Below are positions 411 to 28,975 of a stretch of DNA of 32,000 bases, piece after piece; position 1 is the first letter of the stretch, and the number at the start of each line of letters is the position of its first letter. The notes under the pieces were generated by a model. That model did no database searches, had not been told where the DNA came from, and saw only the letters and a program-made list of their open reading frames with translations. The stretch is from assembly GCA_013390745.1 (NCBI GenBank), contig JACASX010000009.1, forward strand, positions 1 through 32,000, in the 5' to 3' direction. The position numbers and the translations under genes are program-made. This DNA is from Marine Group I thaumarchaeote. Its GTDB lineage: Archaea; Thermoproteota; Nitrososphaeria; Nitrososphaerales; Nitrosopumilaceae.

Positions 411-1769
411 ATGAATTCCACGAACCGCCCAAATGTAATATTTTTACTAATTGATGGATTAAGAAAAGATGAAATATTTGATGAGAATAAAACATCAAAA
501 ACACCAAATTTTGATTCTTTAATTAAATCTGGCTCATTTTTTTCAAATGCATTTTCATCTGCCGATGGTACAATTCTTGCATTAAACACAATCTTCAATT
601 CCCTGTTTCCTTTTAATACTGGTGTAAGAGAAAGGAGAATAGTTCTTACAGATAATAATATTTTTAATATTTTTCAAAAAAATAAGTATCATATTTTTGG
701 ACTTGTGCCAGACATGGAAATTTATGAGCCAATCAAAAAGAAGTTTGAAAATAAATTAAATTCGTATGATTGGATTAATGGAAATGAATCACTTGCAACA
801 GGATTAACAAAAAAAATTATAAATATTTTACAATCTAATAATTCCGAACCGTGGATTTCTTATTTTCATATTTTAGATTTACATCCTTTAAGGGAAGGAA
901 AAATTCCTAATGGCATTGAAGAGTTTGAAAGTTCAGATTTCGGCTCAAGTAATTATTCTAAAACAGTATCTAGTATAGATTATTGGTTTGGAAAAATCTT
1001 AGAGTGTGTAGATTTGTCTAATACAATTATTATTTTAACATCAGATCATGGCGAAAAAATCCCGTACAAAGGAAGAACAAACTCAGATATGGAACACCGA
1101 TTGGACAGGACTAAAAAAATTGGAAAAAGCGTTTTGCCAAAAAAAACTCACGAAAAAGCTGGTAAAATGTTATCTAAAATAAGAACTTCAATTAGTAAAC
1201 CTAAAATAATAATAGAAAACCAAGAACTAACAAATTATCAAAAGCGTTCACGGACTCCTTACTTTACACTTTCATTACATGATGAAAATTTACATGTACC
1301 AATACTAATTGTGGGTAAGGGGATTTCACAATACTTGATAAAAAATTTTGTAAGACATGTAGATATTTTACCTACTTTGTGTGATATACTACATTTTGAA
1401 TTGCCTCAAAAAATTAATGGTGTAAGTTTCAAGCCATTACTTGAGCAAAAACAAATCCAGGAAAATATACAATATTTACATACAATGCCTTATGAAAAAC
1501 CTCATCAAGATGATGCGGTAGGAATAAGAACTAACAAATACAAATATTTTCGTTCAGTTCAAAATCCAAATAAAAACGTCCATTTGTATAATTTACAAAA
1601 AGATCCTCATGAAAACCACAATATTTCAGAGAATAATCAGAATGTTGTAAAAGAATTAGAAGAGGAATTATCAAGATTAATTAAAAATCCAATTACGTTT
1701 AATGAAGAGATGTCAGATGAGGATGATAAAAAAATTGAAGAAGAATTGAAAAAAATGGGATATTTATAA
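411..1769 (+). CDS. Alkaline-phosphatase-superfamily (sulfatase-fold) enzyme, cytoplasmic, Thr at the nucleophile position; predicted phospho/phosphono-ester transferase or esterase rather than a sulfatase
   Basis: N-terminal NVIFLLIDGLR metal-binding Asp string and LTSDHGE near the C-terminal part of the core. SSADGTILALNTIFNSLFPFNTG aligns by spacing to the sulfatase C-x-P-x-R...LTGxYP..TG block, with Thr replacing Cys/Ser and no P-x-R. No signal peptide. A 2-nt gap to the next gene indicates an operon. Confidence 0.75.
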   Translation: MNSTNRPNVIFLLIDGLRKDEIFDENKTSKTPNFDSLIKSGSFFSNAFSSADGTILALNTIFNSLFPFNTGVRERRIVLTDNNIFNIFQKNKYHIFGLVPDMEIYEPIKKKFENKLNSYDWINGNESLATGLTKKIINILQSNNSEPWISYFHILDLHPLREGKIPNGIEEFESSDFGSSNYSKTVSSIDYWFGKILECVDLSNTIIILTSDHGEKIPYKGRTNSDMEHRLDRTKKIGKSVLPKKTHEKAGKMLSKIRTSISKPKIIIENQELTNYQKRSRTPYFTLSLHDENLHVPILIVGKGISQYLIKNFVRHVDILPTLCDILHFELPQKINGVSFKPLLEQKQIQENIQYLHTMPYEKPHQDDAVGIRTNKYKYFRSVQNPNKNVHLYNLQKDPHENHNISENNQNVVKELEEELSRLIKNPITFNEEMSDEDDKKIEEELKKMGYL

Positions 1770-1771
1770 TT

Positions 1772-2887: not shown

Positions 2888-2909
2888 CGACATTTTTTCC
2901 TATTTCTTT

Positions 2910-4301: not shown

Positions 4302-4305
4302 GAAG

Positions 4306-5055
4306 TTAATCAACTATTTTTTCTCTTATATTTTCTAAATCTTCAATGGTATCAATTTCAAACCAGACACCATCAACAAAAATAGGATTTACAACTTCAT
4401 TAACTTGAATTAATTCATCTATCATATCGGTGAGGTATGCCTTTTGTAATGAAGGTGCATTATGAAACTCTCCCTGATGGGAAGAATTTAATCTCTCAAA
4501 AATATTGAGAAATTTCTTTGAACCAACATTGTTTAGTTTTATTATTCCTAAAAATTCACCTAATTGATGATTTTCAGTAGGATTCAGATTTTTTTTAATT
4601 TTTATTAGTTTATTTGATTTAATTAATGCTAAATCTGCTTCTGATTTTGGGTGCTGAGTACGATTCTCATATTTTTTTTCCCAGTTTAGATCAATTGCAA
4701 CCCCAATGTCATAAGTTGATTCAATCACCTGTTTCATTATGTTGTTATCAACTATTACATCCCCAAATGAAATCACAACATCATTCTGAAAATGTTTGTT
4801 AGCTGCCATTAAACTTCCTAATTGTTCATGGTCATGAAATTTTTTATCAACAACATATTCAATATTTTTTAATTGAAATTTGTCTTTATTTGGACCAATA
4901 ATTACAATGATCTCTTTAATACCATTATTTCGAAATGTTTCAATTTGTCTTTCAAGAATTGATTTTCCATTTACATCAACTAGTGATTTCGGCAAATCTT
5001 TTGTTATATTTCCTAATCTTGAACCCTCTCCAGCTGAAATAAATATGGCTTTCAT
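4306..5055 (-). CDS. LicC/PntC-like nucleotidyltransferase (probable phosphonate cytidylyltransferase), last gene of the pepM operon
   Basis: N-terminal ISAGEGSRLGNITKDLPKSLVDVNGKSILERQI is a G-x-G-x-R-L NTP-transferase loop. The C-terminal FEIDTIEDLENI resembles the LicC end. There is a 4-nt gap after the ppd beta subunit gene. It is a 249-aa paralog of 21613..22362. Confidence 0.75.
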   Translation of the reverse strand: MKAIFISAGEGSRLGNITKDLPKSLVDVNGKSILERQIETFRNNGIKEIIVIIGPNKDKFQLKNIEYVVDKKFHDHEQLGSLMAANKHFQNDVVISFGDVIVDNNIMKQVIESTYDIGVAIDLNWEKKYENRTQHPKSEADLALIKSNKLIKIKKNLNPTENHQLGEFLGIIKLNNVGSKKFLNIFERLNSSHQGEFHNAPSLQKAYLTDMIDELIQVNEVVNPIFVDGVWFEIDTIEDLENIREKIVD

Positions 5056-5059
5056 ACTA

Positions 5060-5614
5060 TCATTTTTTTAATGAATTCATAAATCTATTTTTAATTTTAG
5101 TCGGCTCTATGTTTATTCGTTTACTGGTAACTCCACCTTTTTGAATTTTAACAATTACCATGATTGGACCAGGAATTGTTTTTATTTTTTGAAAAACATT
5201 TACCAGTTGATTTTTTGTTTTTACCTGAAAAACTCTGTAATTTGTTGATTTAGCAATTTTACCTAATTGAATTTTATTTGTTGCTGTAGGCTGTCCACCT
5301 GTTGATTCATGACTACTATTATCAAAAATTACATGAACAAGATTTTTTGGTTTTGCTGTTCCTATAGTAATTAATGAACCTAGATTCATCAAAATATTTC
5401 CATCTCCATCAAACACAAAAATTCGCTTTTTTGTATTTTTTAATGCAACACCTAAACCAATTGAGGATGCCAATCCCATAGAACCAATCATATAGAAATT
5501 CGAATTCCTATCACAAACTTCAAAAAGATCTCGACTAATGAGACCATTTGCAGATATTACAGGATGATCACCAATTTTTTTAACTACTATGCTAATCGCT
5601 TCTTTTCTAATCAA
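5060..5614 (-). CDS. ppd: Phosphonopyruvate decarboxylase, beta subunit (ThDP diphosphate-binding domain; ComE-like)
   Basis: GSMGLASSIGLG and FDGDGNILMNLGSL...FDNSSHESTGGQ form a ThDP GDG...N motif. It overlaps the alpha subunit gene by 8 nt and lies immediately downstream of pepM. Confidence 0.8.
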   Translation of the reverse strand: MIRKEAISIVVKKIGDHPVISANGLISRDLFEVCDRNSNFYMIGSMGLASSIGLGVALKNTKKRIFVFDGDGNILMNLGSLITIGTAKPKNLVHVIFDNSSHESTGGQPTATNKIQLGKIAKSTNYRVFQVKTKNQLVNVFQKIKTIPGPIMVIVKIQKGGVTSKRINIEPTKIKNRFMNSLKK

Positions 5615-6095
5615 GAAAATCTCTTTTCAAAATTAATGTGCATGGTTTTTTCTCTTTGATCAGTTTTAAGGCCCAATTACAAGATACCTTCCAATTTTTT
5701 TCAGTTAAAATTTTAGATTGCAAAGAAAGTGCTTGAAGCAATTTCGGTTGGATCTTTCCAATTTTAGTGTGCTCGGGGGCATCATTTTCTAGGAAACCTC
5801 TCCAACCAATTAAAAAAATTATTGGTATTTGATATAATTGTACTAAAGATGTAATTGTGCTTAAAGAATTTGCAAACCCCGCATTTTGCATAAATACTAA
5901 AGAATTACTTTGTGATAAACTCATTCCAACAGCAATTCCAATAGCTTCTTCTTCTTTAGTAGTAATAAGAATTTTATTTTTTTTAAATCCTTGATCGATA
6001 AAATGTTTCATTGTTGAATCAGGTACTCCAATAAAATTTTCAATTCCATTATTAAATAAATAATCAAAAATTTGTTTTTGCGTTAATTCTTTCAA
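5607..6095 (-). CDS. ppd: Phosphonopyruvate decarboxylase, alpha subunit (ThDP pyrimidine-binding domain; ComD-like)
   Basis: FIGVPDSTMKHF...TTKEEEAIGIAVGMSL...FMQNAGFANS is a typical ThDP N-terminal domain with a catalytic Glu. It has a 4-nt ATGA-type overlap with pepM. Confidence 0.8.
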   Translation of the reverse strand: MKELTQKQIFDYLFNNGIENFIGVPDSTMKHFIDQGFKKNKILITTKEEEAIGIAVGMSLSQSNSLVFMQNAGFANSLSTITSLVQLYQIPIIFLIGWRGFLENDAPEHTKIGKIQPKLLQALSLQSKILTEKNWKVSCNWALKLIKEKKPCTLILKRDFLD

Positions 6096-6988
6096 GAGAT
6101 GTAGCCTAATTTTCTTAATTTTTCTTCAATATCTTTTTCTTGGGATTTAATATCAAACATTTCTTGTAATTTAAAAATTTCATCCATCGAGGACATTTCG
6201 TTCTGTATCTTGTCCATATTATTAGCATCTTTCATTTTGGTTAACAGATTCGTTAGTGCCTTGTGTGCAGCACGTAATGTTTGATTTGCATAAATAACCA
6301 TTTTGATATTATGAGAAATTAATTCGTCCATCTTTACGGAATAATATGTTGTGGGTATCGCAACCAACGGAGAACTTCCTTTCCAGGATTCTGAAAATTC
6401 AAAAATTTCTTCAGGGGAAATTTTTTTCGAATGAATTAAAATTAAATCAGCACCTGCTTTTTCATATGCATAAGCTCTTTTGAGTGCTTCATCCATACCT
6501 ATCCCTGAAATTAATGCCTCTACACGAGCAATAATCGAGAATGACTTGTTTTGTTTAGCTTCATTGGCAGCTAATATTTTTGCAACAAAATCTTTTTCAG
6601 ATAATAATTGGTTATTACCATTTTTTAACAAACTATTTTGCTTTGGAAATGTTTTATCCTCAATACAAATTCCAGCAATTCCGGCATTTTCATATTTTTT
6701 GACAATATGTCTGACATTATTTGCATCTCCATATCCAGTATCACAATCTGCAATTATAGGTATTTGACAAGATTGAACCATATTCGATGCGGCATCAAAA
6801 AATTCAGTCATAGTTAGGATACTAGCATCGGGTACATTGTGAATTGCAGAAATCGCAAAGCTCCCAGCCCAAACAGCGTCAAAACCATGTGTTTCAACTA
6901 ATTTTGCAGACATTGCATCATAAGCGCCACAGACTTTAACAATTTCTTTTTTTTCTAATAAATTTACTAAATTATCTGATTGATTCAT
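6092..6988 (-). CDS. pepM: Phosphoenolpyruvate phosphomutase (PEP mutase)
   Basis: Isocitrate-lyase/PEP-mutase fold (IIADCDTGYGD). The PepM-discriminating E-D-K-x5-N-S motif is present as CIEDKTFPKQNS, residues 110-119, nt 6632-6661, checked codon by codon. ppd follows immediately downstream. Confidence 0.92.
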   Translation of the reverse strand: MNQSDNLVNLLEKKEIVKVCGAYDAMSAKLVETHGFDAVWAGSFAISAIHNVPDASILTMTEFFDAASNMVQSCQIPIIADCDTGYGDANNVRHIVKKYENAGIAGICIEDKTFPKQNSLLKNGNNQLLSEKDFVAKILAANEAKQNKSFSIIARVEALISGIGMDEALKRAYAYEKAGADLILIHSKKISPEEIFEFSESWKGSSPLVAIPTTYYSVKMDELISHNIKMVIYANQTLRAAHKALTNLLTKMKDANNMDKIQNEMSSMDEIFKLQEMFDIKSQEKDIEEKLRKLGYIS

Positions 6989-7009
6989 GAAAAAAATTAT
7001 AATTGTAAG

Positions 7010-7019
7010 TTATAAAAAA
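7010..7019. promoter_or_regulatory. TATA-like element (ttataaaaaa) in the 51-bp divergent pepM/pdh spacer, centred ~26 nt from both start codons
   Basis: The centre at ~7014 is 26 nt from the pepM start (6988) and 26 nt from the pdh start (7040). This fits archaeal TATA-to-TSS spacing if both mRNAs are leaderless. Confidence 0.3.
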
Positions 7020-7039
7020 CATCCCATCGATTATAATGT

Positions 7040-7972
7040 ATGAAGATTATAAAACAACCAAATAATATAAAATTTGGACTTGGGGCTGCAAAAGATTTTA
7101 GCTGTCCAGAAAAATCGTTAGTGATTACCTCAAAAGGGGCCAGTTCGAGGGGATGGTTAAATTATACAAATCTAGAAAAACAAAAATGCTTTCATGATGT
7201 TGAACCTAATCCATCATTAGATACAGCAAAAAAAATTATTTCGAATTTTAAAGATGCAAATATTGAGTGTGTAATAGGACTTGGAGGTGGAAGCTCGTTA
7301 GATGTTGCAAAGTTTGTGGGACATAAACTAGGAAAGAAAAAAATTCTAATTCCAACTACATTCGGGAGTGGAAGTGAAGTAACAAGAATTGCCGTTTTAA
7401 CGGTTAAAGGTAAAAAAACAAGCTTTCATGATGATGAAATGTTTGCAGATACTGCAATTGTCGATCCACATTTTATTAAAAATTCACCAATGGAAGTAAT
7501 AAAAAACTCAGCTGTTGATGCATGTGCACAATGTACAGAAGGATATGACAGTAAAAATGGAAATGAGTATACAAAATTTTTGTGTAATGCCGCATTTGAC
7601 ATATTGGAAGATGCAATATTAAACGAAAAATATGAAAATTTGCCCATGGGTTCATTAGTTACTGGATTAGGATTTGGAAACTGTTCAACAACATTAGGTC
7701 ATGCATTATCATATGTGTTTTCAAATGAAGGATACAGTCATGGTCATGCTTTATCATTTACAACATTAGCCGCTCATCAATTTAATTCATCAAAATTCAA
7801 AGAAAGATTCGAAAAAATAACTAAAAAATTAGAGTTTGAAAGAATTTATTTAAAACAAGATTTAATGATTGCAGCAAAATCAGTTTTCTCTGATAGAAGA
7901 CATTTAGATAATAATCCTAAAATTGTTTCTAAAGGTGATATTATAGATATTTTAAAGCAATTCAAAATCTGA
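7040..7972 (+). CDS. pdh: Iron-containing (group III) alcohol dehydrogenase, probable phosphonoacetaldehyde reductase producing 2-hydroxyethylphosphonate
   Basis: GLGGGSSLDVAKF and a His-rich metal site (LGHALSYVFSNEGYSHGHALS). The gene is divergent from pepM and supplies the reduction step needed between Ppd and MpnS/HEPD. It is short (310 aa) for the family. Confidence 0.7.
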   Translation: MKIIKQPNNIKFGLGAAKDFSCPEKSLVITSKGASSRGWLNYTNLEKQKCFHDVEPNPSLDTAKKIISNFKDANIECVIGLGGGSSLDVAKFVGHKLGKKKILIPTTFGSGSEVTRIAVLTVKGKKTSFHDDEMFADTAIVDPHFIKNSPMEVIKNSAVDACAQCTEGYDSKNGNEYTKFLCNAAFDILEDAILNEKYENLPMGSLVTGLGFGNCSTTLGHALSYVFSNEGYSHGHALSFTTLAAHQFNSSKFKERFEKITKKLEFERIYLKQDLMIAAKSVFSDRRHLDNNPKIVSKGDIIDILKQFKI

Positions 7973-8126
7973 AATTGATGAAATTTCTATGATTTGAATC
8001 AAAAAAGGAAAATATGGAAGTAACAATTATGCGTAAATATACTGTATAAATTTCAATTTTTGATATTTCTAGTATTAAAAATTTCAGTATTGCTTTTTAG
8101 AAAAGAAAAACATTTCATCAGCAGAA

Positions 8127-8135
8127 TTTATAAAA
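8127..8135 (+). promoter_or_regulatory. TATA-like element (tttataaaa) ~25 nt upstream of the 8156 start
   Basis: Position and composition only. Confidence 0.25.
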
Positions 8136-8155
8136 TTCTTTAATAAAGCGATGTT

Positions 8156-8752: not shown

Positions 8753-10174
8753 ATGAAAAATTTCATTGTCTTCCCGTTTCTATTAGCGTTCTTGCCATCA
8801 TGGCAACTGATCTTGAAAAATTATGACGAATTAATTTTCCAAGACATTCTCATTTCATTAGTCATAATAGCTATATCAGTAATAATTTGGATAGTAATTA
8901 CAAAAATAATTAAAAATGGAAATAAAGCGGCTCTAATTACAGGCGTAGGCGTAGCATTCTTCTTTTACTTTGGTTATATGCAAGATGCATTAAATGGGAT
9001 AATGATTTTCAATATTCCCATAGACAAAACTAGTGTTTTAGTGATAATATCAATAATAATTTTTATCACATCAACAATTTATTTTGTAAAATCAAGAAAG
9101 AATTTTGAATTATCAATAAAAATTGGTAATGTTTTTACAATAACATTAATTCTATTTACTTTAGTACAATTTGTTATACCTGGCGCACTTGCTGAAAAAC
9201 CTAATGTGTATCACATAATACTGGATGAATATACCGATAATGAAATTTTGATGGAGAAATTTAACTATGACAACGAAGAATTCTTCAAATTTCTAAACAA
9301 AAATGGATTTTTCATACCAAGTAAATCATTTTCATCGTTTACATCAACTGATGCTGAATTAAACGTGATATTAAACATGGAATATCCAAAAGAGATAGGA
9401 CGGGCATCCGAAAATTATGATTATCTGAATGATAACAACGCTATGTCAGTATTTTCTGAGCAAAATTATTCACTTATTGAAACAAATTCTATGATGCGCT
9501 GGAAGAATTTTTCAGACGTAGATACGAAACTTTGTTATGATACAACCTTCATCAATTCCGAGTTCTTAGATCAAGTTTTAAGAAAATCAATAATTAAACA
9601 CTTTTTAGAAAAACATCAAGAAAATACACGACGTGACGTAATAAGATGCACATTTCACGAATTGAGTGAAATAGCATCGCAAACCAGCGGACCAAAATAT
9701 GTTTTTTCGCACATATATGTGCCACACCCACCATTCCTTTTTGGTCCAAATGGTGAAAATGTTACACCTGATCATCGTGAGATAAGTGGATTGCAAAGTT
9801 GGGAAAACCCACAAGGATACATAGATCAATTAATTTATGCTACAAATGAAGTAAGTACAGTAATAAAAAATATTATAAAAAATGATCCTAACGCAATAAT
9901 TATTGTGCAGGGAGATACAGGCACATCAACAATGTTTCATTCAGCTCCAACAGAATTCAAAGATGTTTATCAAATCTATTCTATTCTTTATGCAATAAGA
10001 ATTCCAGATGTCAATAACTTGGATGCTATGATACCAGTTAACACGTATAGAATTATTTTCAATAATTATTTTAATATGGATTATGAATATTTAGAACAAC
10101 GCAGCTATATGCTTGATCAAAACAATGTTTGGATAGATATTACAGAAAAATTACACGAATACAGATTTGATTAG
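8753..10174 (+). CDS. Polytopic membrane protein with an extracytoplasmic alkaline-phosphatase-superfamily domain (LtaS/EptA-like architecture), paralog A
   Basis: About 145 aa of hydrophobic helices come first. Then come VYHIILDEYTDNE (metal Asp), SFSSFTSTD (Thr candidates), FSHIYVPHPPFLFGPNGENVTP and IIIVQGDTGTS. It aligns end to end with 18410..20020. Confidence 0.6.
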   Translation: MKNFIVFPFLLAFLPSWQLILKNYDELIFQDILISLVIIAISVIIWIVITKIIKNGNKAALITGVGVAFFFYFGYMQDALNGIMIFNIPIDKTSVLVIISIIIFITSTIYFVKSRKNFELSIKIGNVFTITLILFTLVQFVIPGALAEKPNVYHIILDEYTDNEILMEKFNYDNEEFFKFLNKNGFFIPSKSFSSFTSTDAELNVILNMEYPKEIGRASENYDYLNDNNAMSVFSEQNYSLIETNSMMRWKNFSDVDTKLCYDTTFINSEFLDQVLRKSIIKHFLEKHQENTRRDVIRCTFHELSEIASQTSGPKYVFSHIYVPHPPFLFGPNGENVTPDHREISGLQSWENPQGYIDQLIYATNEVSTVIKNIIKNDPNAIIIVQGDTGTSTMFHSAPTEFKDVYQIYSILYAIRIPDVNNLDAMIPVNTYRIIFNNYFNMDYEYLEQRSYMLDQNNVWIDITEKLHEYRFD

Positions 10175-11613
10175 GCATCTTTGTTATGTAATTCCCTAAT
10201 GTATTGAGCCCCAATTTTTGCTGATTCTCCAATATTATACACTGTTTTTTCACGTATATCTTTGATTAGCTCACCAATATTTTGAGTATTTTTATCTAAA
10301 ATTCTAATAAGATCTAAAATTTCTTCCAAATTATTTGGTGAAATTATGTGACCAATTTTATCTCTAATCGATGTTTCAATTGGTTCTAGTGCAATATCAC
10401 TCCAATTTGTATTTAAGACCTTTTTTGGAACATCAATAAAAATAACTGGGCGTTCAAAAGTAAATGCATATTCTAATGAAATGCCTGACCAATCTGAGAT
10501 CATACACAGAGAATTATTTAACGAATCGAACTTAATGACGCCTGTCTCAAGAACAAAATTAGGATTTTTCCCAAATTTTTTCTTTATTGAATCAATTAAT
10601 TCTGTAGAATCTCTCAATGTTCTTATATGTGGTCTTATCATCACTCTGAAATCTGATTTTAATAAAATATCAATCAGTTTAATTCCGCACTTCTCAAGAA
10701 GATTATCGTCTCCATATGATGGTGCAATTATAATTAAATTCTTAGCATCAGAATTTGTTGCTTGAGCATTTATCTTGTTTTGTAATAATGTGTCTAATCT
10801 GCCATATCCATAATTGATTAATTTTTTTGCTTTCAATCCATATACCTTTTCTGCCTCTCGGATTTCTTTGATTTGATGAGGGCCGACACAAAAAATTGTA
10901 TCGTAGTTATCTATCGCTCCTTTTCTTAGATACGAATGAACGCTATACATTGAATGAAATAAGTAAATGTAGTGAACAGGATATTCATCGGATCTTTTGA
11001 TATGGAATTTGCCTAAATCTGGCATGTCCATTACTAAAATTTTCGCTTTTAATGAAGAAAAGAATTTTGTCCGTGCTGTTCCATCGCCAATATAAAACGG
11101 TAGAATTCTTTGATTTCTGGTAGATAATATTGGATCATCCTTAACTGATGTAACATAACAAATTTGTAAATTCATTTTTTCAGTTAATTCATGAATTAAC
11201 GATTGAAAATGATTCATTGATGCTTTATTTTCAGCATAAAATACGATTGAGCGTTCGTCCTGGCTTAACTGATTAATTTTTTTTAATTCAGCCCATTCTG
11301 AAACAAAACCAGACTCTAAACTATGTTTATCAGTGGATTCTGTTTGCTTTTCTTTAGAAAAACCTCCAGAAAATCTTGTTTTTATTTTAAACCAATATGA
11401 TTTTAAAATCATTGCGCCCGCGGCAACCACACCAGCAAGTAATGTAAGTAAAGCACTTCCGGTAACCGGATCAATGTAAGCATATACATCTAAAACAAAA
11501 AACTGATGAAATGTTAATAATATTGCAACAAAAGGAATCAATTTTCTATATTTTATGTGGCTAAATCGATCCATCTCATTAGTAAATTCTTGAACAAAAA
11601 ATGGGATTTTCAT
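10171..11613 (-). CDS. TagF-like CDP-alcohol phosphotransferase family protein (Glyphos_transf-like) with an N-terminal hairpin membrane anchor, paralog A
   Basis: IIIAPSYGDD matches YAPTWR. MIRPHIRT matches K-x-HP. MISDWSGISLEYAFTFERPVIFIDVP matches ITDYSSvfFDfaxxdKPiIFy. The N-terminus has two TM helices flanking AYAYIDPVTGS. Stop codons overlap convergently with 8753..10174. Confidence 0.6.
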   Translation of the reverse strand: MKIPFFVQEFTNEMDRFSHIKYRKLIPFVAILLTFHQFFVLDVYAYIDPVTGSALLTLLAGVVAAGAMILKSYWFKIKTRFSGGFSKEKQTESTDKHSLESGFVSEWAELKKINQLSQDERSIVFYAENKASMNHFQSLIHELTEKMNLQICYVTSVKDDPILSTRNQRILPFYIGDGTARTKFFSSLKAKILVMDMPDLGKFHIKRSDEYPVHYIYLFHSMYSVHSYLRKGAIDNYDTIFCVGPHQIKEIREAEKVYGLKAKKLINYGYGRLDTLLQNKINAQATNSDAKNLIIIAPSYGDDNLLEKCGIKLIDILLKSDFRVMIRPHIRTLRDSTELIDSIKKKFGKNPNFVLETGVIKFDSLNNSLCMISDWSGISLEYAFTFERPVIFIDVPKKVLNTNWSDIALEPIETSIRDKIGHIISPNNLEEILDLIRILDKNTQNIGELIKDIREKTVYNIGESAKIGAQYIRELHNKDA

Positions 11614-11673: not shown

Positions 11674-12741
11674 TTATTTTTTTACGTGTGAATTTAGTAT
11701 TCGAATAAATTTTTTTGCCGCAACTTCCCAACTATATGTTTCTTCAATAAACTTTTTACCTTCATTACCCATTTGTTCTGATAATTTTTTATCTGCAAGC
11801 AATAATTTTATTTTTTCAATTAGTTGTTTGTGATTACCTTTTTCTACCAAAAATCCTGTTACACCATCTTTCATCATATCTGGATTTCCACCAACATTAG
11901 TTGCAATAACTGCCCTTTTCATTAATTGGGCCTCTTTAAGAGACAGTGGAGATAAATCCATTCCTGTTATTAACGCATAGATATCAATCTCACTCAAAAA
12001 CTCTCTAACTTTATCTGGATATTCTAGTTTTCCTAACCAATGAAAGTTTTCATATTTTTCTAATTCTGTAAGTATTCTTTCTTCAAACGGTCCATGTCCT
12101 ACCCAATAAAATTGCACGTCAGGTAATTTTTCTAAAACCTTTTTCAAAATCAACATCTCTGATGTTTTACCCCACCAATTTGCATATTGGACTAATCCCA
12201 CGCATGGATGTTTCAATTTCATTCCATTTACTTTATACCATCGGGTTGCATCTACTCCTTCAAAAAAAACGTCTGTTTTTTGGTTTGGTACATGTTCATT
12301 AGTGATTTTTTCTAAATATTTACAAATAGGCAAGATTATTTTTGCCTCACTAAAAATCCTTTTTGCAATTTGATCCCATTTCTGAATAGCAATATTTTTT
12401 GGAAATGATTTGTATATTGTTTTTTTATACCAAGCAAGTTCTGACCAATAATGTCCTCGCAGAAGTACAAAAAGCGGTATGTTTTTTTCTAACGCAGCAA
12501 TTCCAAAATGTTTTTGTCTATCTATAAAAATTGCATCAGGTTTGAAATCTTCGATCAGTTTATTGAATCGTTTTTTAGTTTGAAACCAATTTATTATTTT
12601 TCTACTTGGAAAACCATCACAGTAATCTGTATCAAGAACTAGTTTAGTCTCCACACCCAACTCATTTAATTTATTTGAGAATTCTTTTAAGTGGAAAAAA
12701 AACGAACTTGAACCTCCGATTAAAAGTTTCAATTTTATCAC
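11674..12741 (-). CDS. GT-B fold glycosyltransferase (GT4-like), paralog A
   Basis: C-terminal LSLKEAQLMKRAVIATNVGGNPDMMKDGVTGFLVE is a typical GT4 nucleotide-sugar binding block. It is a paralog of 17204..18277, sharing HPCVGLVQ, KKTIYKS and IPLFxLLRG. Confidence 0.75.
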   Translation of the reverse strand: MIKLKLLIGGSSSFFFHLKEFSNKLNELGVETKLVLDTDYCDGFPSRKIINWFQTKKRFNKLIEDFKPDAIFIDRQKHFGIAALEKNIPLFVLLRGHYWSELAWYKKTIYKSFPKNIAIQKWDQIAKRIFSEAKIILPICKYLEKITNEHVPNQKTDVFFEGVDATRWYKVNGMKLKHPCVGLVQYANWWGKTSEMLILKKVLEKLPDVQFYWVGHGPFEERILTELEKYENFHWLGKLEYPDKVREFLSEIDIYALITGMDLSPLSLKEAQLMKRAVIATNVGGNPDMMKDGVTGFLVEKGNHKQLIEKIKLLLADKKLSEQMGNEGKKFIEETYSWEVAAKKFIRILNSHVKK

Positions 12742-12747
12742 AAATCC

Positions 12748-15007: not shown

Positions 15008-15892
15008 TTATGCTATTTTATACGAAGTTTCTAGAGCATGCTTGTAGGTCTTAGCTGTTCCAATATCAATTTCAATTTCATTTGATTTGATAGGAATGGC
15101 AACTACTTTTTCTCCTCGTTCAATTAGATTTTGTATAGCATCAGTTAATTGTAATTCATTATTCTTATCTGGTTTTATGTTTTTAAGAGATTCAAATATT
15201 TTTGGTTTGAAAAAGTAAATTGGTAACAAACCTAAATTAGATTTCGGTTTAGTAGGTTTTTCTTCAACTTTTTCAACCAAATAGACTGATGATGAAATAT
15301 TTTTTACCTGTGGAACTCCATATCTTTTAGGATCTTTTATTTTTTTACAAAGAAGTACGGCTGCTATAGAAGGATCATCTTTTGCAGTTTTTATTAATCT
15401 TAAAACTGGATGTTTGGATCCACCTATGATGGAAACATCTCCACCATGCACAATAAAATTATCATTTCCAATATATCTCTCAGCTCGTTTTACGGCATCA
15501 CCGAATCCCAACGGCTTGTTTTGGTTTGTCCATATAAGATGTGACTTTTCTAATCTTTTATAGAAGTTCGACATCAATGCGTTGTTCTTTTTAGATAATT
15601 CATTAAGATAAGTTTCGTCTGGCGTAAAATGATCTTTAATTGATCTTTTTTCTCTACCTACTACAAAGCAGTAGTCTCTTATACCTATACCATATAGCTG
15701 TTCAAAAATAAATTGAAGTAAGGGAATAACAATCAGGTTGTTGTTGTATATTTTAGAAAAAATAGGCATCATTTCTTTGGGAAGCTCCTTAGTTATAGGA
15801 AGAAGTCTAGTGCCTTTTCCAGCAGCAGTTATAACCGATTTAATCACAAAAATCACCTTAACTTTATTATCTCTGTTTTTAAATTTTAACAC
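15008..15892 (-). CDS. Sugar-1-phosphate nucleotidyltransferase (GalU-like UTP-glucose-1-phosphate uridylyltransferase)
   Basis: ITAAGKGTRLLPITKELPKEMMP matches the GalU-type loop. The track start is GTG at 15892. An internal GTG at 15847 would give MIKSVITAAGKG, which looks more like a canonical N-terminus. Confidence 0.75.
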   Translation of the reverse strand: MLKFKNRDNKVKVIFVIKSVITAAGKGTRLLPITKELPKEMMPIFSKIYNNNLIVIPLLQFIFEQLYGIGIRDYCFVVGREKRSIKDHFTPDETYLNELSKKNNALMSNFYKRLEKSHLIWTNQNKPLGFGDAVKRAERYIGNDNFIVHGGDVSIIGGSKHPVLRLIKTAKDDPSIAAVLLCKKIKDPKRYGVPQVKNISSSVYLVEKVEEKPTKPKSNLGLLPIYFFKPKIFESLKNIKPDKNNELQLTDAIQNLIERGEKVVAIPIKSNEIEIDIGTAKTYKHALETSYKIA

Positions 15893-20063: not shown

Positions 20064-20270
20064 ATGCATACTAAATACGGATTCACATTCTTTTTAGCAT
20101 CTGTTTTTATCTTTTCACAGTTTTTTATTTCTAATGCCTATGCATACATCGATCCAGGTAGTGTGAGTGTAGCTTTTGCATTAATTGTTGGTGTACTAGT
20201 AGGGGCTGGCATGACAATAAAACTTTACTGGATAAAATTAAAAAATAAATTATCGAGGAAAACTGATTAA
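20064..20270 (+). CDS. 68-aa stand-alone hairpin membrane-anchor peptide, homologous to the N-terminus of the TagF-like protein at 10171..11613
   Basis: FFLASVFIFSQFFISNAYAYIDPGSVSVAFALIVGVLVGAGMTIKLYWIKLK aligns with FVAILLTFHQFFVLDVYAYIDPVTGSALLTLLAGVVAAGAMILKSYWFKIK. Confidence 0.55.
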   Translation: MHTKYGFTFFLASVFIFSQFFISNAYAYIDPGSVSVAFALIVGVLVGAGMTIKLYWIKLKNKLSRKTD

Positions 20271-20351: not shown

Positions 20352-21548
20352 ATGAAAATCACCAAATCGATTTTTGGTAAAGAAGGGAACGATATCGACA
20401 AATTTAATGAATTGGATTTGGATGAACGTTCAATCGTTTTCTATTCGGAAAGTTCAGTTATCTTGTATCCATATGTTGAGGAAATAATTAGGGAGCTCCA
20501 AAATAGAGATCAAAAAATTTGTTATTTAACCTCAAGCAAACATGATCCCATTCTCAAAAACGAGAGTAAAAACATCAAAGTTTTTTACATTGGTGACTCT
20601 GAAATTGAAAAAATGAAATTTTTTTTAAGATTAAAGGCAAAGGTGTTAATTATGACCATGCCTGATTTAGGAAGTTACCATATTAAGCGTTCAAAAATAT
20701 TCCCAGTTCATTACATTTACACTTTTCATTCAATGAATAGTACGCATATGGATGGTACTAATTACGTCAGGACTTCTCTCTTTCGAAAGAGTACACTTGA
20801 CCAGTTTGATAGTATATTTTGTGTAGGGAAATACCAAGTTCAAGAAATTCGTGCCACTGAAGAGTTGTATAACCTTAACAAAAAAAATTTGGTTGAATGC
20901 GGATATGGGTTATTAGACAAATTAATCAGATTAAGATCTTCATCTGCACAACAAAATTTTCTGTCACAAAATAATAAAAAAAAGGTTCTAATTGCACCTT
21001 CATGGGGAAAACAAAATTTATTGGAATCTGTGGGCATAGAATTAGTAAAAATTTTACTTGATGCTGGTTATCATGTTACAATTAGACCACATCCTATGAC
21101 CATTAAAAAATCACCCAAGGTAGTAAAACAAATTAAGGAAAAATTTGAGAAAAATCCAGATTTTGATTTAGATACAAATGTATCCTCTCTTGAACAATTG
21201 TTGTCTAGTTATGCACTGATTACAGATTGGTCAGGAATTGGTTATGAATATGCATTCGTTTGCGAAAGACCTGTGATTTATGTTGAGGTTCTAAAAAAAG
21301 CTCGTAATAAAGAATATGAAAAAATTGGGCTTGAACAATTTGAAATTAGTATTAGAGATAAAATAGGCGAAATTGTTTCTATTCAAAATATAGAAAACAT
21401 ACCAGAACGCATCGAATTTTTGTATGCTCATATCAACGATTTTGAAAATAAAATCCAGAAAATTCGGAATGATGCAATTTTCAATATTGGAGAATCTGGA
21501 AAAGTAACTGCTAATGAGATTATTAGAATAATTAATGAAAAAGCATAA
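20352..21548 (+). CDS. TagF-like CDP-alcohol phosphotransferase catalytic domain, paralog B, lacking its own membrane anchor
   Basis: DERSIVFY, MPDLGSYHIKRS, FPVHYIYTFHSM, LIAPSWGKQN, IRPHPMT and ITDWSGIGYEYAFVCERPVIYVEV are all colinear with residues ~115-480 of 10171..11613. Confidence 0.6.
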   Translation: MKITKSIFGKEGNDIDKFNELDLDERSIVFYSESSVILYPYVEEIIRELQNRDQKICYLTSSKHDPILKNESKNIKVFYIGDSEIEKMKFFLRLKAKVLIMTMPDLGSYHIKRSKIFPVHYIYTFHSMNSTHMDGTNYVRTSLFRKSTLDQFDSIFCVGKYQVQEIRATEELYNLNKKNLVECGYGLLDKLIRLRSSSAQQNFLSQNNKKKVLIAPSWGKQNLLESVGIELVKILLDAGYHVTIRPHPMTIKKSPKVVKQIKEKFEKNPDFDLDTNVSSLEQLLSSYALITDWSGIGYEYAFVCERPVIYVEVLKKARNKEYEKIGLEQFEISIRDKIGEIVSIQNIENIPERIEFLYAHINDFENKIQKIRNDAIFNIGESGKVTANEIIRIINEKA

Positions 21549-21580
21549 GCAAAATAGCTTGTGATAAATTTGTTCTAACA

Positions 21581-21588
21581 TTATATTA
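21581..21588 (+). promoter_or_regulatory. TATA-like element (ttatatta) ~28 nt upstream of the 21613 start
   Basis: Position and composition only. It would give the nucleotidyltransferase/oxygenase/radical-SAM operon its own promoter. Confidence 0.25.
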
Positions 21589-21612
21589 TGGCCAGTTAAT
21601 GTCATAAATTAC

Positions 21613-22362: not shown

Positions 22363-22376
22363 AATATTGATATTGA

Positions 22377-25386: not shown

Positions 25387-25503
25387 TTGCAAAGGATTTT
25401 ACAGTTAAAGTTGAGAAACATTTGAATTTATCCTAAGAATTTTCTATAAATGGTTGATTAATTAATACAATGTCTTTTATTCTATTAATCTAATTTTTTT
25501 CCA

Positions 25504-26523: not shown

Positions 26524-26584
26524 CAAAGTGTGTTACTCAAATTCTATAAAAAGAGTATTAAGATGGCAAAATTGAGTTAGCTCA

Positions 26585-28975
26585 TTGCAGTTAGATAAAG
26601 GATTAGTTAAGGTTGAAAAGTCATCGCATTATGGACGCTATCTGCTAATAATTGGAATACTTGCTCTTTCCTTTTCATTATCTGTCGTGATGCGAGCACA
26701 GCCTCTAGAATATGGTTTTGAATTAAATGAGTATGACCCATTTTTCAATTACAGGGCAACTCAGTTTATGACAGAGAATGGTTTGCCAGCATATTTGGAA
26801 TGGAATGACGACTTGTCGTGGCATCCACATGGAAGGGATATTTCAACCACTTCACAAGTAATGCTTCATATTACTACTGCAACGCTTTACCAAATTTTTG
26901 GTATGGGTTCCAGCCTGTATGATTTTACCATATTGTTCCCATTGGTTGTTGGCTCACTTACTACAATTGTTATTTTTGCATTGGTTAGAACAATTGGAGG
27001 CACAACAGCTGGACTTTTTGCTTCGCTCTTCTTTGCCGTCTCTCCTATAATCATTATGAGAGGCTCAATAGGCTGGTTCAAGTCTGAGCCGCTGGGTCTT
27101 TTTTACGGATTGTTAGCTGTTTATCTCCTTATTAGCGGCATCAAATCAGACAAAGGAAAGGTATCTATCGCAAAGATTGTAGGAAGTGGTATCTTTCTGG
27201 CCTTTGGTCTTACTTCATGGGGAGGCATCCAGTTTTTCATATTACCAATAGGACTTTTTTTCTTAGCATTACCATTCCTAAGAAAAGATAACAAGTTCAT
27301 CGTATTGACTTCTGTTATTTTCACATCTACACTAGTTTTGGTAACTATACTATTTGACTTATTGAAAGCTATTGGATTACCAGTAGAAACTTTAGCTGGG
27401 GATTTACTAAGCCTAAATGCGCTTTTCATGATTGGATGCACTGGATTTCTGGTAGCGTATGTCATAATCAGGGTGATATTGAAAAAAGTACAGTTACGTA
27501 GTGGTCTCGCACTCTTAAGCGGTACCATAATAGCTGGAATTGCTATAGTCTCTTCAGGCATGGATATCGTTACTTTGCCGTCTTTTAGGTATCTTAATGC
27601 CGCAAACCCCCTTTTGATTACAACTAACATGCTTACAGATTCTGTATCTGAGCATGCAACATCAACCATCGATATTTCATTTTACTTCTTCTCAGTTTTG
27701 ATGGTCTTTGCAGGACTAGGAGCTTGGTTGCTCTTCCAAAAAAAAGTAAACCGTTCTTTGCAAATTAAAGGCGAAATGGCTGCATTTGCTCTCATAATAG
27801 GATTTCTTGGAATCTATTTCAGCTCTGCATTTGTAAGATTGGAAGTATTTGGTTCAATCTCAGTTATAATATTATCATCTATAGGCATATCAATTCTAAT
27901 ATCAAAAATCCTAAAAGATGGACATAAACCTGCAAGTGCTGTAACTAAAATTTCTTTTCTGGCTATAATTGTAGCCTTGTTAATGGTACCAATGGCTTAT
28001 CCTGAAGAATTTAACTGGTCAAATAACAACGTTGGATTACCTATTACCATACTGAATAGCGGTACTCAGTTTAATGTGTCCACAAATGATTGGGCTGATG
28101 CCATGCAGTGGTTAAGGGAAAATACTCCTAAAGATGCCGTTATTGCATCATGGTGGGATTATGGATACTGGATTTCCACTCTTGGTGAAAGAAAAACTTT
28201 AGCTGATAATTCAACACTATTAGATTGGCAGATTAGAAAAATAGCAGCTACGTATATGAGCACGCCGGAAGATGCTTGGCGAATTTTAACGAGTGATGTA
28301 GATACTGATGTAAGTTCATACTATGTAACTTTACCAGCTGATGTTACTAATCCAACTAAACCTACAAATGACATTTATGATGAGAAGCAAAATAAGCTCG
28401 ATCAATTCAAAAATTGGAAAGATGATCCTACAATAGAAAAAATATACGGTCCTGAAATAGCTGAAAAATATCCCACGTTGTTTGATTATTGGGAACAAGA
28501 AGTGTATGTTCTTTCACCAGTAATTACTGGTCTAGATGCTGACTATGTTATAATAAATCTTGCAGCGGAGAAACTGAGTGCAGAAAACATAATGGATTTG
28601 TATGTACTTAAACAAAAAGGCGGTGATGAAAGTAAGGCTTTTTGGTTTCTTAAAATAGCGGATTTGCGTATTTTGGATTATTATAATCCAGAACTATCGG
28701 GTTACAGTGATAAATTCTGGGATGAAACACTTTTAGGAAAATTAATACCATTTACACATATAGTATATGTAGACACTATTAATCCTGAAATTCAATCAGA
28801 AACTTTCAAGCCAGGTTACACTTCAATCTATGTTAAAAATATCAAGTTTCCAATGAATGGAGACGGTCCATTTCAATTGGTATATGTTCCTCCATCATTT
28901 GAGATGGATGCACCTGGTCCACTGACTGGTCCTCTAATTTACAAAATAAACAAAGAGTATAACCCAAATCAATAA
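26585..28975 (+). CDS. aglB: Archaeal oligosaccharyltransferase AglB (STT3 family)
   Basis: About 13 N-terminal TM helices with an NEYDPFF first-loop acidic motif. WWDYGYW lies at nt 28151-28171, followed by TLADNSTLLDWQIRKIAATYMS, which resembles the eukaryote-type DNNTWNNxHI..VG.AM block. The track start is TTG and the true start is uncertain. Confidence 0.9.
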   Translation: MQLDKGLVKVEKSSHYGRYLLIIGILALSFSLSVVMRAQPLEYGFELNEYDPFFNYRATQFMTENGLPAYLEWNDDLSWHPHGRDISTTSQVMLHITTATLYQIFGMGSSLYDFTILFPLVVGSLTTIVIFALVRTIGGTTAGLFASLFFAVSPIIIMRGSIGWFKSEPLGLFYGLLAVYLLISGIKSDKGKVSIAKIVGSGIFLAFGLTSWGGIQFFILPIGLFFLALPFLRKDNKFIVLTSVIFTSTLVLVTILFDLLKAIGLPVETLAGDLLSLNALFMIGCTGFLVAYVIIRVILKKVQLRSGLALLSGTIIAGIAIVSSGMDIVTLPSFRYLNAANPLLITTNMLTDSVSEHATSTIDISFYFFSVLMVFAGLGAWLLFQKKVNRSLQIKGEMAAFALIIGFLGIYFSSAFVRLEVFGSISVIILSSIGISILISKILKDGHKPASAVTKISFLAIIVALLMVPMAYPEEFNWSNNNVGLPITILNSGTQFNVSTNDWADAMQWLRENTPKDAVIASWWDYGYWISTLGERKTLADNSTLLDWQIRKIAATYMSTPEDAWRILTSDVDTDVSSYYVTLPADVTNPTKPTNDIYDEKQNKLDQFKNWKDDPTIEKIYGPEIAEKYPTLFDYWEQEVYVLSPVITGLDADYVIINLAAEKLSAENIMDLYVLKQKGGDESKAFWFLKIADLRILDYYNPELSGYSDKFWDETLLGKLIPFTHIVYVDTINPEIQSETFKPGYTSIYVKNIKFPMNGDGPFQLVYVPPSFEMDAPGPLTGPLIYKINKEYNPNQ

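Follow-up and report, generated by a model that had tools for sequence, protein, structure and literature searches.

Several described systems bear on how marine microorganisms may carry phosphonates on their surface. For Nitrosopumilus maritimus, a phosphonate ester on an exopolysaccharide has been proposed, with nucleotidyltransferase and sulfatase genes lying beside mpnS (Metcalf 2012, as summarized in Lockwood 2022). In bacteria, PntC makes CMP-2-aminoethylphosphonate (CMP-AEP), an activation of a phosphonate by an enzyme of the LicC family (Rice 2019, PMC6697681), and phosphonoglycoproteins have been hypothesized for marine bacteria in which pepM lies near an oligosaccharyltransferase (OST) gene (Acker 2022). 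A "glycosylation flexible genomic island" of marine ammonia-oxidizing archaea (AOA) has also been published (Suarez-Moo et al. 2024). Here, we analyzed a 32,000-nucleotide stretch (hereafter the window) of the 49,793-bp contig JACASX010000009.1, which belongs to a metagenome-assembled genome (MAG) of a Marine Group I thaumarchaeote (proteins NWK05490 to NWK05514). At positions 411-28975, the window holds a phosphonate and glycan island that, judging from its genes, fairly probably makes phosphonates, activates them as nucleotides and decorates a surface glycan with phosphonate esters.

Candidate genes for phosphonate synthesis, activation and transfer in one archaeal island

The initial annotation of this DNA had united phosphonate synthesis, nucleotide activation, candidate transferases, glycan assembly and AglB in one scheme. 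Open reading frame (ORF) coordinates together with Pfam and NCBIfam scans recovered every kind of gene that it listed (Table 1), and its view of the locus as a whole stands, with corrections to the novelty, the product and the scheme. Five genes had been left out: the FrbJ-like dioxygenase, the cobalamin-dependent methyltransferase, the AsnB-like synthetase, orf190 and a 68-aa membrane ORF. The scheme had also missed the pairing of activation and transfer genes. The nucleotidyltransferases NT1 and NT2 are 45% identical, as are TagF1 and TagF2, and the membrane proteins orf473 and sulf3_TM, each with five transmembrane (TM) segments and a domain of the alkaline phosphatase (AP) superfamily, share 27% identity over their full length (BLASTP, E=2e-62). 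Because all three kinds of gene are present as two paralogous sets, we suggest that the island handles two different phosphonate head groups.

The pepM product shows both features of the criterion used by Acker 2022, a catalytic EDK(X)5NS motif and an adjacent ppd gene. It scores 292.7 bits with TIGR02320, under the equivalog cutoff of 319.55, and this is still its best family, phosphonopyruvate hydrolase reaching 238.6 bits. The length of the pdh product, 310 aa, is kept in its relatives. Together, pepM, the split ppd and pdh make up a predicted complete route from phosphoenolpyruvate (PEP) to 2-hydroxyethylphosphonate (HEP).

The best matches of NT2 in the PDB are LicC, a CTP:phosphocholine cytidylyltransferase (1JYK, 2.7e-13), and then the fusion of PntC with an aminotransferase (6PD1, 5.9e-10), which cytidylylates 2-aminoethylphosphonate (Rice 2019). 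By fold and closest characterized relatives, NT1 and NT2 are thus of the LicC/PntC type, and they are predicted to use CTP and a phosphonate. TagF1 and TagF2 both score above the PF04464 gathering threshold of 22.1 bits. Single-sequence PDB searches with TagF2 or sulf3_TM gave no useful match and profiles were needed. A profile of 10 TagF-like relatives matched the ribitol-phosphate polymerase TarL (8VA1, E=3.7e-6), in an alignment that places RPHP on MHPF and DWSG..EYA on DYSS..EYA, the HP and DxS..E motifs of the donor site, and H247, D292, S294 and E299 are invariant in the TagF-like family. In our literature search, no publication connected TagF-family enzymes with phosphonates, and none named the enzymes of activation or transfer in archaea. 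To that extent these steps are undescribed, as had been claimed for them; the framework around them has been put forward before, as a hypothesis (Lockwood 2022, Rice 2019, Acker 2022).

We scanned metagenomes with a profile of the TagF1/TagF2 alignment and searched the resulting 80 loci, of 45-99% identity, with all window proteins. Among the 36 TagF-bearing contigs that reach 5 kb and the 18 that reach 8 kb, a LicC-like nucleotidyltransferase gene was present on 31/36 and 16/18, a 5-TM AP-fold gene on 20/36 and 10/18, an FrbJ-like dioxygenase gene on 16/36 and 9/18, and a core phosphonate gene (pepM, ppd, pdh or mpnS-like) on 16/36 and 9/18, respectively. At least one phosphonate-linked gene was found on 34 of the contigs in the wider set and on all 18 in the narrower one. 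The FrbJ-like gene follows TagF2-NT2 on 16 of the 36. A TagF-like gene lies directly upstream of an mpnS-like gene on at least 10 contigs, among them examples of both marker types discussed below (L098, L103, L106; L113, L115, L118), and the bacterial mpnS clusters of SAR202 and Myxococcota MAGs hold TagF-like genes too, in one case together with a 5-TM AP-fold homologue. Gene order varies widely among these contigs and the longer Pfam-labelled contigs. One reads UDP-glucose dehydrogenase (UGDH)-AsnB-AP-fold-NT-TagF-...-pdh-GT4-kinase-orf190-orf473-TagF1-...-pepM-ppd, another sulfatase-TauD-sulfatase-NT-ppd-pdh-...-pepM-GT4-AP-fold-...-TagF2-NT2-B12 methylase. Since the linkage outlasts this shuffling, we argue for a shared function, and since the same kinds of gene recur together in many independently arranged contigs, their clustering goes far beyond chance. 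Conversely, four islands of neighboring strains that start at the same border gene, tes, and lack pepM also lack homologues of the TagF, NT and AP-fold genes. As far as contigs shorter than the island allow, the co-occurrence expected by the initial annotation was therefore borne out.

Of the four AP/sulfatase-fold proteins, two are cytoplasmic (sulf1 and sulf2) and two membrane-anchored (orf473 and sulf3_TM), a division on which the Pfam matches, the TM scan and the paralogy of orf473 agree with the earlier proposal. Although sulf1, sulf2 and sulf3_TM pass the Pfam Sulfatase cutoff, the formylglycine motif C/S-x-P-x-R is absent from sulf1 and sulf2. Against a solved sulfatase, the formylglycine Cys is Thr45 in sulf2 and the motif Arg is Met, and an alignment of sulf1 with sulf2 puts Thr on Thr at the nucleophile position, which is why sulf1 is not a formylglycine sulfatase. 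In orf473 and sulf3_TM, a hydropathy scan found about five TM segments before the domain, a module of the LtaS/EptA type, and the number of segments and the charges of the loops predict an outward-facing domain. The profile of the sulf3_TM family matched sulfatases (6S21, E=7.8e-5) and neither LtaS nor EptA in the PDB. A DH metal motif is present in sulf3_TM and reads DT in orf473. The description of all four as Thr-nucleophile proteins therefore holds for sulf1 and sulf2; for the membrane pair, any assignment of the nucleophile is tentative. The same D-T-G subtype of the 5-TM family, in place of D-H-G, was seen in L087, L113 and L121; it would either have an altered catalysis or serve the D-H subtype as a partner that is not itself an enzyme. 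Among accessory genes, sulf2 is the one most constantly found beside thaumarchaeal mpnS, which it adjoins in 10 loci of the Nitrosopumilaceae type.

AglB, whose presence had been claimed, is confirmed. Its homologues, 72-79% identical, lie between tes and glycan genes in two loci (L071 and L080) that keep the window order of tes, AglB, glycan genes and TagF2. A third (L073) has the same order from AglB on, with a partial 78% AglB match at its head, and its contig ends before tes. We considered AglB as a core flanking gene and rejected this, since four other strains have different genes after tes and no AglB there. AglB is therefore assigned to the variable region.

We propose that the pathway would lead from PEP through phosphonopyruvate and phosphonoacetaldehyde to HEP, where it would branch. 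In one branch, the MPnS-family dioxygenase would turn HEP into hydroxymethylphosphonate (HMP), or into methylphosphonate (MPn) if the marker rule discussed below fails. In the other, NT2 would make CMP-HEP, to be tailored by the FrbJ-like hydroxylase, the B12-dependent methylase or both, for which Fom3 offers a precedent. NT1, TagF1 and orf473 (with orf190) would form one set and NT2, TagF2 and sulf3_TM (with the 68-aa ORF) the other. The CMP-phosphonate would be an analogue of a CDP-alcohol, with the phosphonate in place of the beta-phosphate, from which the TagF-like enzyme would pass the phosphonyl moiety on to a hydroxyl of a uronic-acid glycan carried on a lipid and free CMP, as TagF and TarL do with CDP-glycerol or CDP-ribitol. 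This glycan would be assembled by the GT4 enzymes, possibly amidated by the AsnB-like enzyme, then flipped and put on a surface protein by AglB, or else kept as a polysaccharide or exported by another route. Outside the cell, the outward-facing sulfatase-fold membrane proteins would transfer or trim phosphonyl groups.

Several observations weigh against this pathway. Only half of the long TagF contigs carry a core phosphonate gene, which we attribute to the contigs being shorter than the island. The allotment of the two sets to the two branches follows gene order and is a guess. The AlphaFold2 model of sulf3_TM, computed from a two-sequence alignment, had a predicted local distance difference test (pLDDT) score of 34, and the likeness of this protein to LtaS and EptA is one of architecture only. 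AglB is tied to the phosphonate genes by position only, its GC content is higher (∼35%), no phosphonate has been reported on any AOA N-glycan, and a 2025 N-glycoproteomic study of two AOA makes no mention of phosphonates; of the N-glycosylation claim, the gene thus stands and its link to phosphonates is positional. Lastly, mpnS loci of coastal Nitrosopumilus carry three soluble sulfatase-fold genes and no TagF-like gene within 10 kb. TagF-like enzymes, which the linkage to NT and phosphonate genes supports as transferases, are therefore not the universal ones; in coastal Nitrosopumilus the transferase would be something else, possibly the soluble sulfatase-fold proteins, which as the steadiest neighbors of mpnS and NT are serious candidates.

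These coastal loci also speak for a different division of labor, in which the sulfatase-fold proteins would be the real phosphonyl transferases, the soluble ones in the cytoplasm and the 5-TM ones outside, by way of a Thr that carries the phosphonyl group covalently, in the manner of phosphoethanolamine transferases. The TagF-like enzymes would then make a polyol-phosphate polymer or linker of the ordinary kind within the same glycan. This division would fit the constancy with which sulf2-like genes neighbor mpnS and NT genes in all Nitrosopumilaceae loci, the Thr in place of the sulfatase Cys, and a build of five TM segments plus an AP domain that agrees with transferases of the LtaS/EptA type. 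We nevertheless consider it unlikely, as Pfam and NCBIfam scans of the window showed no genes for CDP-glycerol or CDP-ribitol synthesis (TagD/TarI/TarJ type) and the small nucleotidyltransferases beside the TagF-like genes are only LicC/PntC-like. Moreover, many contigs have a TagF-like gene right beside an mpnS-like gene, and the His of the DH motif is missing from orf473 and several relatives.

It is also conceivable that phosphonate and glycan genes are mere neighbors in a recombination hotspot and that the phosphonate ends up as the head group of a lipid or as a small molecule, free or secreted. The island is a mosaic of several transcription units on both strands, housekeeping genes directly flank the core cluster in some relatives (L030), cobalamin-dependent radical S-adenosylmethionine (SAM) and FrbJ-like enzymes are typical of pathways for small-molecule phosphonate antibiotics, and TagF1 and AP-fold proteins are membrane-bound. 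Yet Pfam and NCBIfam scans showed no CDP-alcohol phosphatidyltransferase, peptide ligase or export genes of the kind found in phosphonolipid and antibiotic clusters, and GT4, UGDH and epimerase genes are interleaved with phosphonate genes in every long contig examined. The acceptors of the TagF family are glycans or polyols, and Lockwood 2022 cites a report of cell-associated MPn esters in N. maritimus. We therefore regard a mere neighborhood as quite improbable and retain esterification of a surface glycan, with TagF-like enzymes as the transferases, as the preferred reading.

In a complete Nitrosopumilus MAG chromosome (L004, 1286-9912), an mpnS cluster with the Phe/Ile marker state is accompanied by NeuB (nonulosonic acid synthase), a CMP-sugar cytidylyltransferase, a Capsule_synth-family protein, a TylF methyltransferase and three soluble sulfatase-fold genes. 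The NeuB and CMP-sugar neighbors suggest a nonulosonic-acid glycan as the acceptor there.

An MPnS-family dioxygenase with HEPD-type second-sphere residues

Methylphosphonate synthase (MPnS) and hydroxyethylphosphonate dioxygenase (HEPD) are told apart by published markers, H148, Q152, F162, I/V184 and H190 for MpnS (Lockwood 2022 Table S2, after Born 2017) and H148, A/Q152, I/Y162, E/G184 and H190 for HepD (Lockwood 2022 Table S2). In phmmer comparisons, the mpnS-like protein of the window matched N. maritimus MPnS (6B9S) with E=3e-163 and 547 bits, far above its 273.7 bits with the HEPD of S. albus (SaHEPD, 6B9R). The alignment shows the iron ligands kept, H147, Q151 and H189 corresponding to H148, Q152 and H190 of NmMPnS. 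The columns of the MPnS marker pair Phe162/Ile184 hold Tyr161 and Gly183, and the resulting signature, H-Q-Y-G-H, is that of HEPD class II, with which a third nearby residue, in DSVxG, likewise agrees. The initial annotation had placed this enzyme in the frame of N. maritimus as MpnS-HEPD, and it was right about the family; the protein is not a standard MPnS. Because the published markers make it an HEPD-type variant, its product is probably not methylphosphonate, and we give HMP an even to slightly better than even chance of being the main product.

We surveyed the marker positions among relatives at three depths. Of the 120 closest proteins in a large sequence collection (72-100% identity), 103 have H-Q-Y-G-H, eight Phe/Gly, eight Phe/Gln and one Phe/Ile at the two markers. 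The 28 relatives in species-representative genomes (43-60% identity) all have Ile184 and none has Gly. Across 150 representatives of the family, 95 carry Phe and Ile, 26 carry Tyr and Gly and hardly anything else is found, 161 and 183 being the only two perfectly discriminating columns of this set. The nearest representatives of the window protein (44-58% identity) are all of the Phe/Ile type, whereas the classical Tyr/Gly group is 33-42% identical. In a neighbor-joining tree (no bootstrap), the window clade is sister to the Phe/Ile MPnS of Nitrosopumilaceae within the MPnS radiation and stands apart from the classical Tyr/Gly clade, so that by phylogeny it does not fall with HEPD class II. 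Since the window protein branches inside the MPnS radiation, we interpret its HEPD-type signature as a secondary acquisition. A coordinated switch of both residues within the MPnS lineage, with further toggling inside the clade, would be the simplest reading of these patterns.

Inside the window clade, P0176, P0182, P0196-P0205 and L064 (∼2600-4000) have Phe/Gly or Phe/Gln at the markers, and P0171, an 84% identical member, shows the MPnS state Phe/Ile. Three relatives from SAR202/Chloroflexi (L019, L021 and L022) have Tyr/Ile. Such mixed states fall outside the published two-class rule. The window gene is a singleton at 90% clustering and was considered as a rare oddity; this was rejected, as it has dozens of relatives at 90-97% identity.

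The dioxygenase may still be a genuine MPnS despite Tyr161 and Gly183, in which case the island would make methylphosphonate esters as proposed for N. maritimus. The S. albus HEPD (Tyr163, Gly184) has reportedly been turned into an MPnS by Phe and Ile at those residues. The Tyr/Gly rule reportedly stems from this one mutated HEPD, an enzyme outside the window clade, which counts against HMP as the product; a text search of the literature for the marker-residue names gave no match. A genuine MPnS would also agree with the ∼65% identity to the crystallized NmMPnS (read by eye from the alignment; tblastn best-segment identities to other Nitrosopumilaceae MPnS are 55-60%), with the conserved His/Gln/His ligands and with the nesting of the protein in the MPnS clade. 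Moreover, the Joint Genome Institute (JGI) annotates close relatives as methylphosphonate synthase, and Qin 2020 treats deep marine lineages as mpnS. Set against this are the two-state pattern of the 150 representatives, the joint switch of both positions in the window clade (103/120 with Tyr and Gly), the HEPD-like residue of DSVxG, and the published curation criteria, under which H-Q-Y-G-H is filed as hepD. Taken together, methylphosphonate synthesis is in our view a serious possibility, although not the one we favor, and we proceed with an enzyme of the HEPD type. Marine hepD has been reported from Pelagibacterales and one Prochlorococcus only (Lockwood 2022), and most deep marine thaumarchaeal mpnS genes belong to new lineages that have been taken to mean methylphosphonate and methane at depth (Qin 2020).

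Candidate tailoring enzymes, accessory genes and borders of a mosaic island

Two candidate tailoring enzymes follow NT2. The TauD-family dioxygenase matches FrbJ in the PDB (5EQN, 1.7e-25) and, more weakly, the phosphonate hydroxylase TmpA (6NPB, 2e-4); FrbJ belongs to the FR-900098 phosphonate pathway. The cobalamin-dependent enzyme scores 208 bits with the KedN5 family and 53 bits with PhpK, both under their cutoffs, and matches TokK (7KDX, 2e-43). With the C-methylase family ahead by a factor of four in score, a PhpK-like P-methyltransferase was rejected as the leading assignment. Fom3 methylates cytidylyl-HEP (HEP-CMP) rather than free HEP (PMC8158854). Given this precedent and the FrbJ-like and C-methylase matches, the run of TagF2, NT2, dioxygenase and methylase looks like a tailoring line for CMP-phosphonates.

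The AsnB-like gene was found on 14 of the 36 TagF-bearing contigs that reach 5 kb and is the commonest direct upstream neighbor of TagF2 in other islands (L055, L057, L063, L070-L073). Its product may amidate a uronic acid, with a role in phosphonate chemistry as an alternative. The protein orf190 has 2723 homologues, nearly all of 180-197 aa. Foldseek matched its AlphaFold2 model best to the A-domain barrels of pyruvate kinases and also to citrate-lyase-beta/HpcH proteins. Its invariant pyruvate kinase-like positions are R22, N24, D49, R54, K56, K107, E109, D134 and D137. Lacking the nucleotide-binding lid and kept just upstream of orf473/TagF1, it may, to judge from the model, be an enzyme that binds PEP or phosphonopyruvate. 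In related loci, a small P-loop kinase resembling adenosine 5'-phosphosulfate (APS) kinase lies between pdh/GT4 and orf190 (L033/L034 8765-9277, L126 7269-7778); it is absent from the window. From their sequences, such a kinase and the pyruvate kinase-like protein could provide a second, phosphorylation-based activation of phosphonates. The 68-aa ORF is probably a small membrane subunit, and a gene of 68 aa was called at the matching position in L037, L039 and L040.

The 25 genes of the island are divided between the two strands and form at least seven blocks that alternate in orientation, and GC content is 28-31% within the island as against 36-38% from ∼26 kb on. On the left, the window starts within a gene for a surface protein with FG-GAP repeats, which is outside the phosphonate pathway. 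As FG-GAP genes hold the same place in the related contig L029, the variable surface region extends past the left end of the window. On the right, tes is the border of the variable island, and differing glycan genes lie downstream of it in four other strains. In L041 (14517-19235), a gene for a 1572-aa SlaA-like S-layer protein lies inside the variable region ∼3 kb from tes, so that an S-layer gene shares the hotspot with the island studied here.

Comparison with L029 also exposes recombination. There, the left block from sulf1 to NT1, which includes sulf2 and the mpnS-like gene, matches that of the window at 95-97% identity, and the adjoining ppd-pepM-pdh block does so at only 65-79%. These abutting blocks point to a recombination mosaic with a breakpoint between NT1 and ppd. 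L037 has no mpnS-like gene, and its two sulfatase-like genes are separated by a TauD gene; in L030 the core phosphonate cluster is flanked directly by housekeeping genes. Scans for tRNA and Rfam families found no match and hence no tRNA-type integration signal. We conclude that the locus is one version of a strain-variable surface-glycosylation island of marine AOA, in agreement with the published glycosylation island (Suarez-Moo 2024), and that its head-group chemistry would differ between strains.

Table 1. Genes of the window in positional order, with the evidence for each assignment. TPP, thiamine pyrophosphate; aa, amino acids
Position	Strand	Gene or product	Evidence
1..337	-	Gene for a secreted FG-GAP-repeat protein, 5' part only, cut by the left end	Signal-peptide-like N terminus and FG-GAP-like repeats in translation
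411..1769	+	sulf1, soluble AP/sulfatase-fold protein	PF00884 89.7 bits; no TM segment
1772..2887	+	sulf2, soluble AP/sulfatase-fold protein	PF00884 78.5 bits
2910..4301	+	MPnS-family non-heme iron dioxygenase (mpnS-like) with HEPD class II second-sphere signature	His147, Gln151, Tyr161, Gly183, His189
4306..5055	-	NT1, LicC/PntC-like nucleotidyltransferase, proposed to form CMP-phosphonate	PF12804 and PF00483
5060..5614	-	ppd, phosphonopyruvate decarboxylase beta (TPP C-terminal) subunit	TIGR03297 184 bits, model 171-358
5607..6095	-	ppd, phosphonopyruvate decarboxylase alpha (TPP N-terminal) subunit	TIGR03297 99 bits, model 1-155
6092..6988	-	pepM, PEP mutase	PF13714 195.8 bits; EDKTFPKQNS
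7040..7972	+	pdh/phpC, Fe-dependent alcohol dehydrogenase, phosphonoacetaldehyde to HEP	PF00465 100.6 bits
8156..8728	+	orf190, 190-aa pyruvate-kinase/HpcH-like barrel protein	AlphaFold2 pLDDT 77; Foldseek
8753..10174	+	orf473, 5-TM protein with sulfatase-fold C-terminal domain	Full-length paralogue of sulf3_TM; no Pfam hit
10171..11613	-	TagF1, TagF-family phosphotransferase with N-terminal membrane anchor	PF04464 28.2 bits; TM residues 25-73
11674..12741	-	GT4 glycosyltransferase a	PF00534 76 bits
12748..13668	-	NAD-dependent sugar-nucleotide epimerase/dehydratase	PF01370 190 bits
13668..14984	-	UDP-glucose/GDP-mannose 6-dehydrogenase family (uronic acid supply)	All three UDPG_MGDP_dh domains
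15008..15892	-	GalU-like sugar-1-phosphate nucleotidyltransferase	TIGR01099 169.8 bits, under cutoff; PF00483
15939..17153	+	AsnB-like synthetase domain without glutaminase domain	PF00733 116.5 bits
17204..18277	-	GT4 glycosyltransferase b	PF00534 86.9 bits
18410..20020	+	sulf3_TM, 5-TM protein with C-terminal sulfatase-fold domain	PF00884 33.5 bits, residues 192-474
20064..20270	+	68-aa two-helix membrane ORF after sulf3_TM	Conserved directly behind sulf3_TM homologues
20352..21548	+	TagF2, soluble TagF-family phosphotransferase, proposed to act from CMP-phosphonate on a glycan hydroxyl	PF04464 52.3 bits
21613..22362	+	NT2, LicC/PntC-like nucleotidyltransferase	PF12804 66 bits
22377..23321	+	TauD-family Fe/2-oxoglutarate dioxygenase, FrbJ-like, candidate phosphonate hydroxylase	PF02668 104 bits
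23308..25386	+	Cobalamin-dependent class B radical-SAM methyltransferase, C-methylase type	PF02310 and PF04055
25504..26523	+	GT4 glycosyltransferase c	PF00534 135.9 bits
26585..28975	+	AglB/STT3 oligosaccharyltransferase	PF02516 81.7 bits; WWDYG at residue 523
30226..31893	-	tes, glycerol dialkyl glycerol tetraether (GDGT) synthase, conserved thaumarchaeal core gene	NF045702 686 bits

Significance and comparison with known systems

What is new in this locus is the recurrent module of LicC-like, TagF-like and 5-TM AP-fold genes, found in dozens of rearranged islands and duplicated within the window, together with the tailoring enzymes, a mosaic-like exchange of enzymes for the head groups and the HEPD-type signature of a large "mpnS" clade. 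We tentatively suggest, as a conjecture that may well fail, that an abundant marine thaumarchaeal lineage annotated as MPnS has switched to HMP and that strain islands combine head-group enzymes, of the MPnS, HEPD, FrbJ-like hydroxylase and B12 methylase kinds, with dedicated LicC/TagF/5-TM sets, thereby displaying different esters on their surface glycans. The free hydroxyl of HMP and HEP could even allow the TagF-like enzymes to make short poly(phosphonate) chains resembling teichoic acid.

Methylphosphonate is accepted as the compound from which methane arises in oxygenated sea water, and marine AOA are counted as a main source of this compound from the abundance of "mpnS" reads, a view that Qin 2020 extends to deep water. 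If the Tyr/Gly clade makes HMP, such counts would mix two chemistries and part of the estimated supply of methane precursor would fall away; for the lineage of the window, estimates from gene counts would then overstate the archaeal supply of methylphosphonate and, with it, aerobic methane. Attachment is the unsolved half of phosphonate biology, and the LicC-like, TagF-like and 5-TM genes are clonable candidates for activation and transfer that differ from the LicD-type candidates proposed in bacteria. The swapping of head-group enzymes between strains suggests that phosphonates provide serotype-like surface diversity, which would fit avoidance of viruses or grazers.

The closest described locus is the N. 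maritimus cluster, which shares the core and order of window positions 411-7972 (sulfatase-like gene, mpnS homologue, nucleotidyltransferase, split ppd, pepM and pdh) and the proposed outcome of a phosphonate ester on an exopolysaccharide. It differs in having Phe162/Ile184 where the window has Tyr/Gly, and the window adds TagF-like and 5-TM AP-fold genes, a second nucleotidyltransferase, the FrbJ-like dioxygenase and the B12 methylase. Loci of coastal Nitrosopumilus instead adjoin NeuB/CMP-sugar genes and lack a nearby TagF-like gene. With class II HEPD (SaHEPD, 6B9R), the dioxygenase shares the 2-His-1-Gln ligands, the second-sphere Tyr and Gly and DSVxG, whereas its low identity to the classical Tyr/Gly representatives and its position inside the MPnS radiation set it apart.

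The bacterial Pnt pathway (Rice 2019) combines, as proposed for the island, nucleotide activation by a LicC-family enzyme, represented by the second-best solved relative of NT2, with transfer to surface glycans. Its substrate is AEP, whereas the window has no aminotransferase, and its transferase candidate is LicD-like and in a bacterial host, as opposed to the TagF-family proteins of the archaeon studied here. Wall teichoic acid systems (TagD/TarI with TagF/TarL) resemble the island in placing a small cytidylyltransferase gene beside a PF04464 transferase, in the donor motifs that align with TarL and in the reaction proposed here, in which the distal phosph(on)ate ester is transferred and CMP set free. 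They differ in that the window has no genes for glycerol-3-phosphate or ribitol-5-phosphate, its nucleotidyltransferases are of the LicC rather than the TagD type, and the host is an archaeon; the identity of the window TagF proteins to solved TagF enzymes is too low for detection from a single sequence.

The side-by-side genes at 21613-25386 for a nucleotidyltransferase, a cobalamin-dependent radical-SAM C-methylase and an FrbJ-like dioxygenase recall the fosfomycin (Streptomyces; Fom1 cytidylyltransferase/Fom3) and FR-900098 (FrbH/FrbJ) pathways, which tailor CMP-bound phosphonates. The best solved relatives of the window methylase are TokK and CysS, and where those pathways have a CMP hydrolase, the window has a TagF-like transferase. 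Because the module ends in this transferase, the tailored phosphonate is probably kept as a polymer ester. Strain-variable islands with pepM near an oligosaccharyltransferase are also known from Prochlorococcus SB and SAR11 (Acker 2022), there with bacterial O-OST-like domains, and the AOA glycosylation island (Suarez-Moo 2024) is strain-variable as well and was described without phosphonate genes. Compared with both, the window brings an archaeal AglB and a full set of tailoring and transfer genes together on one contig.

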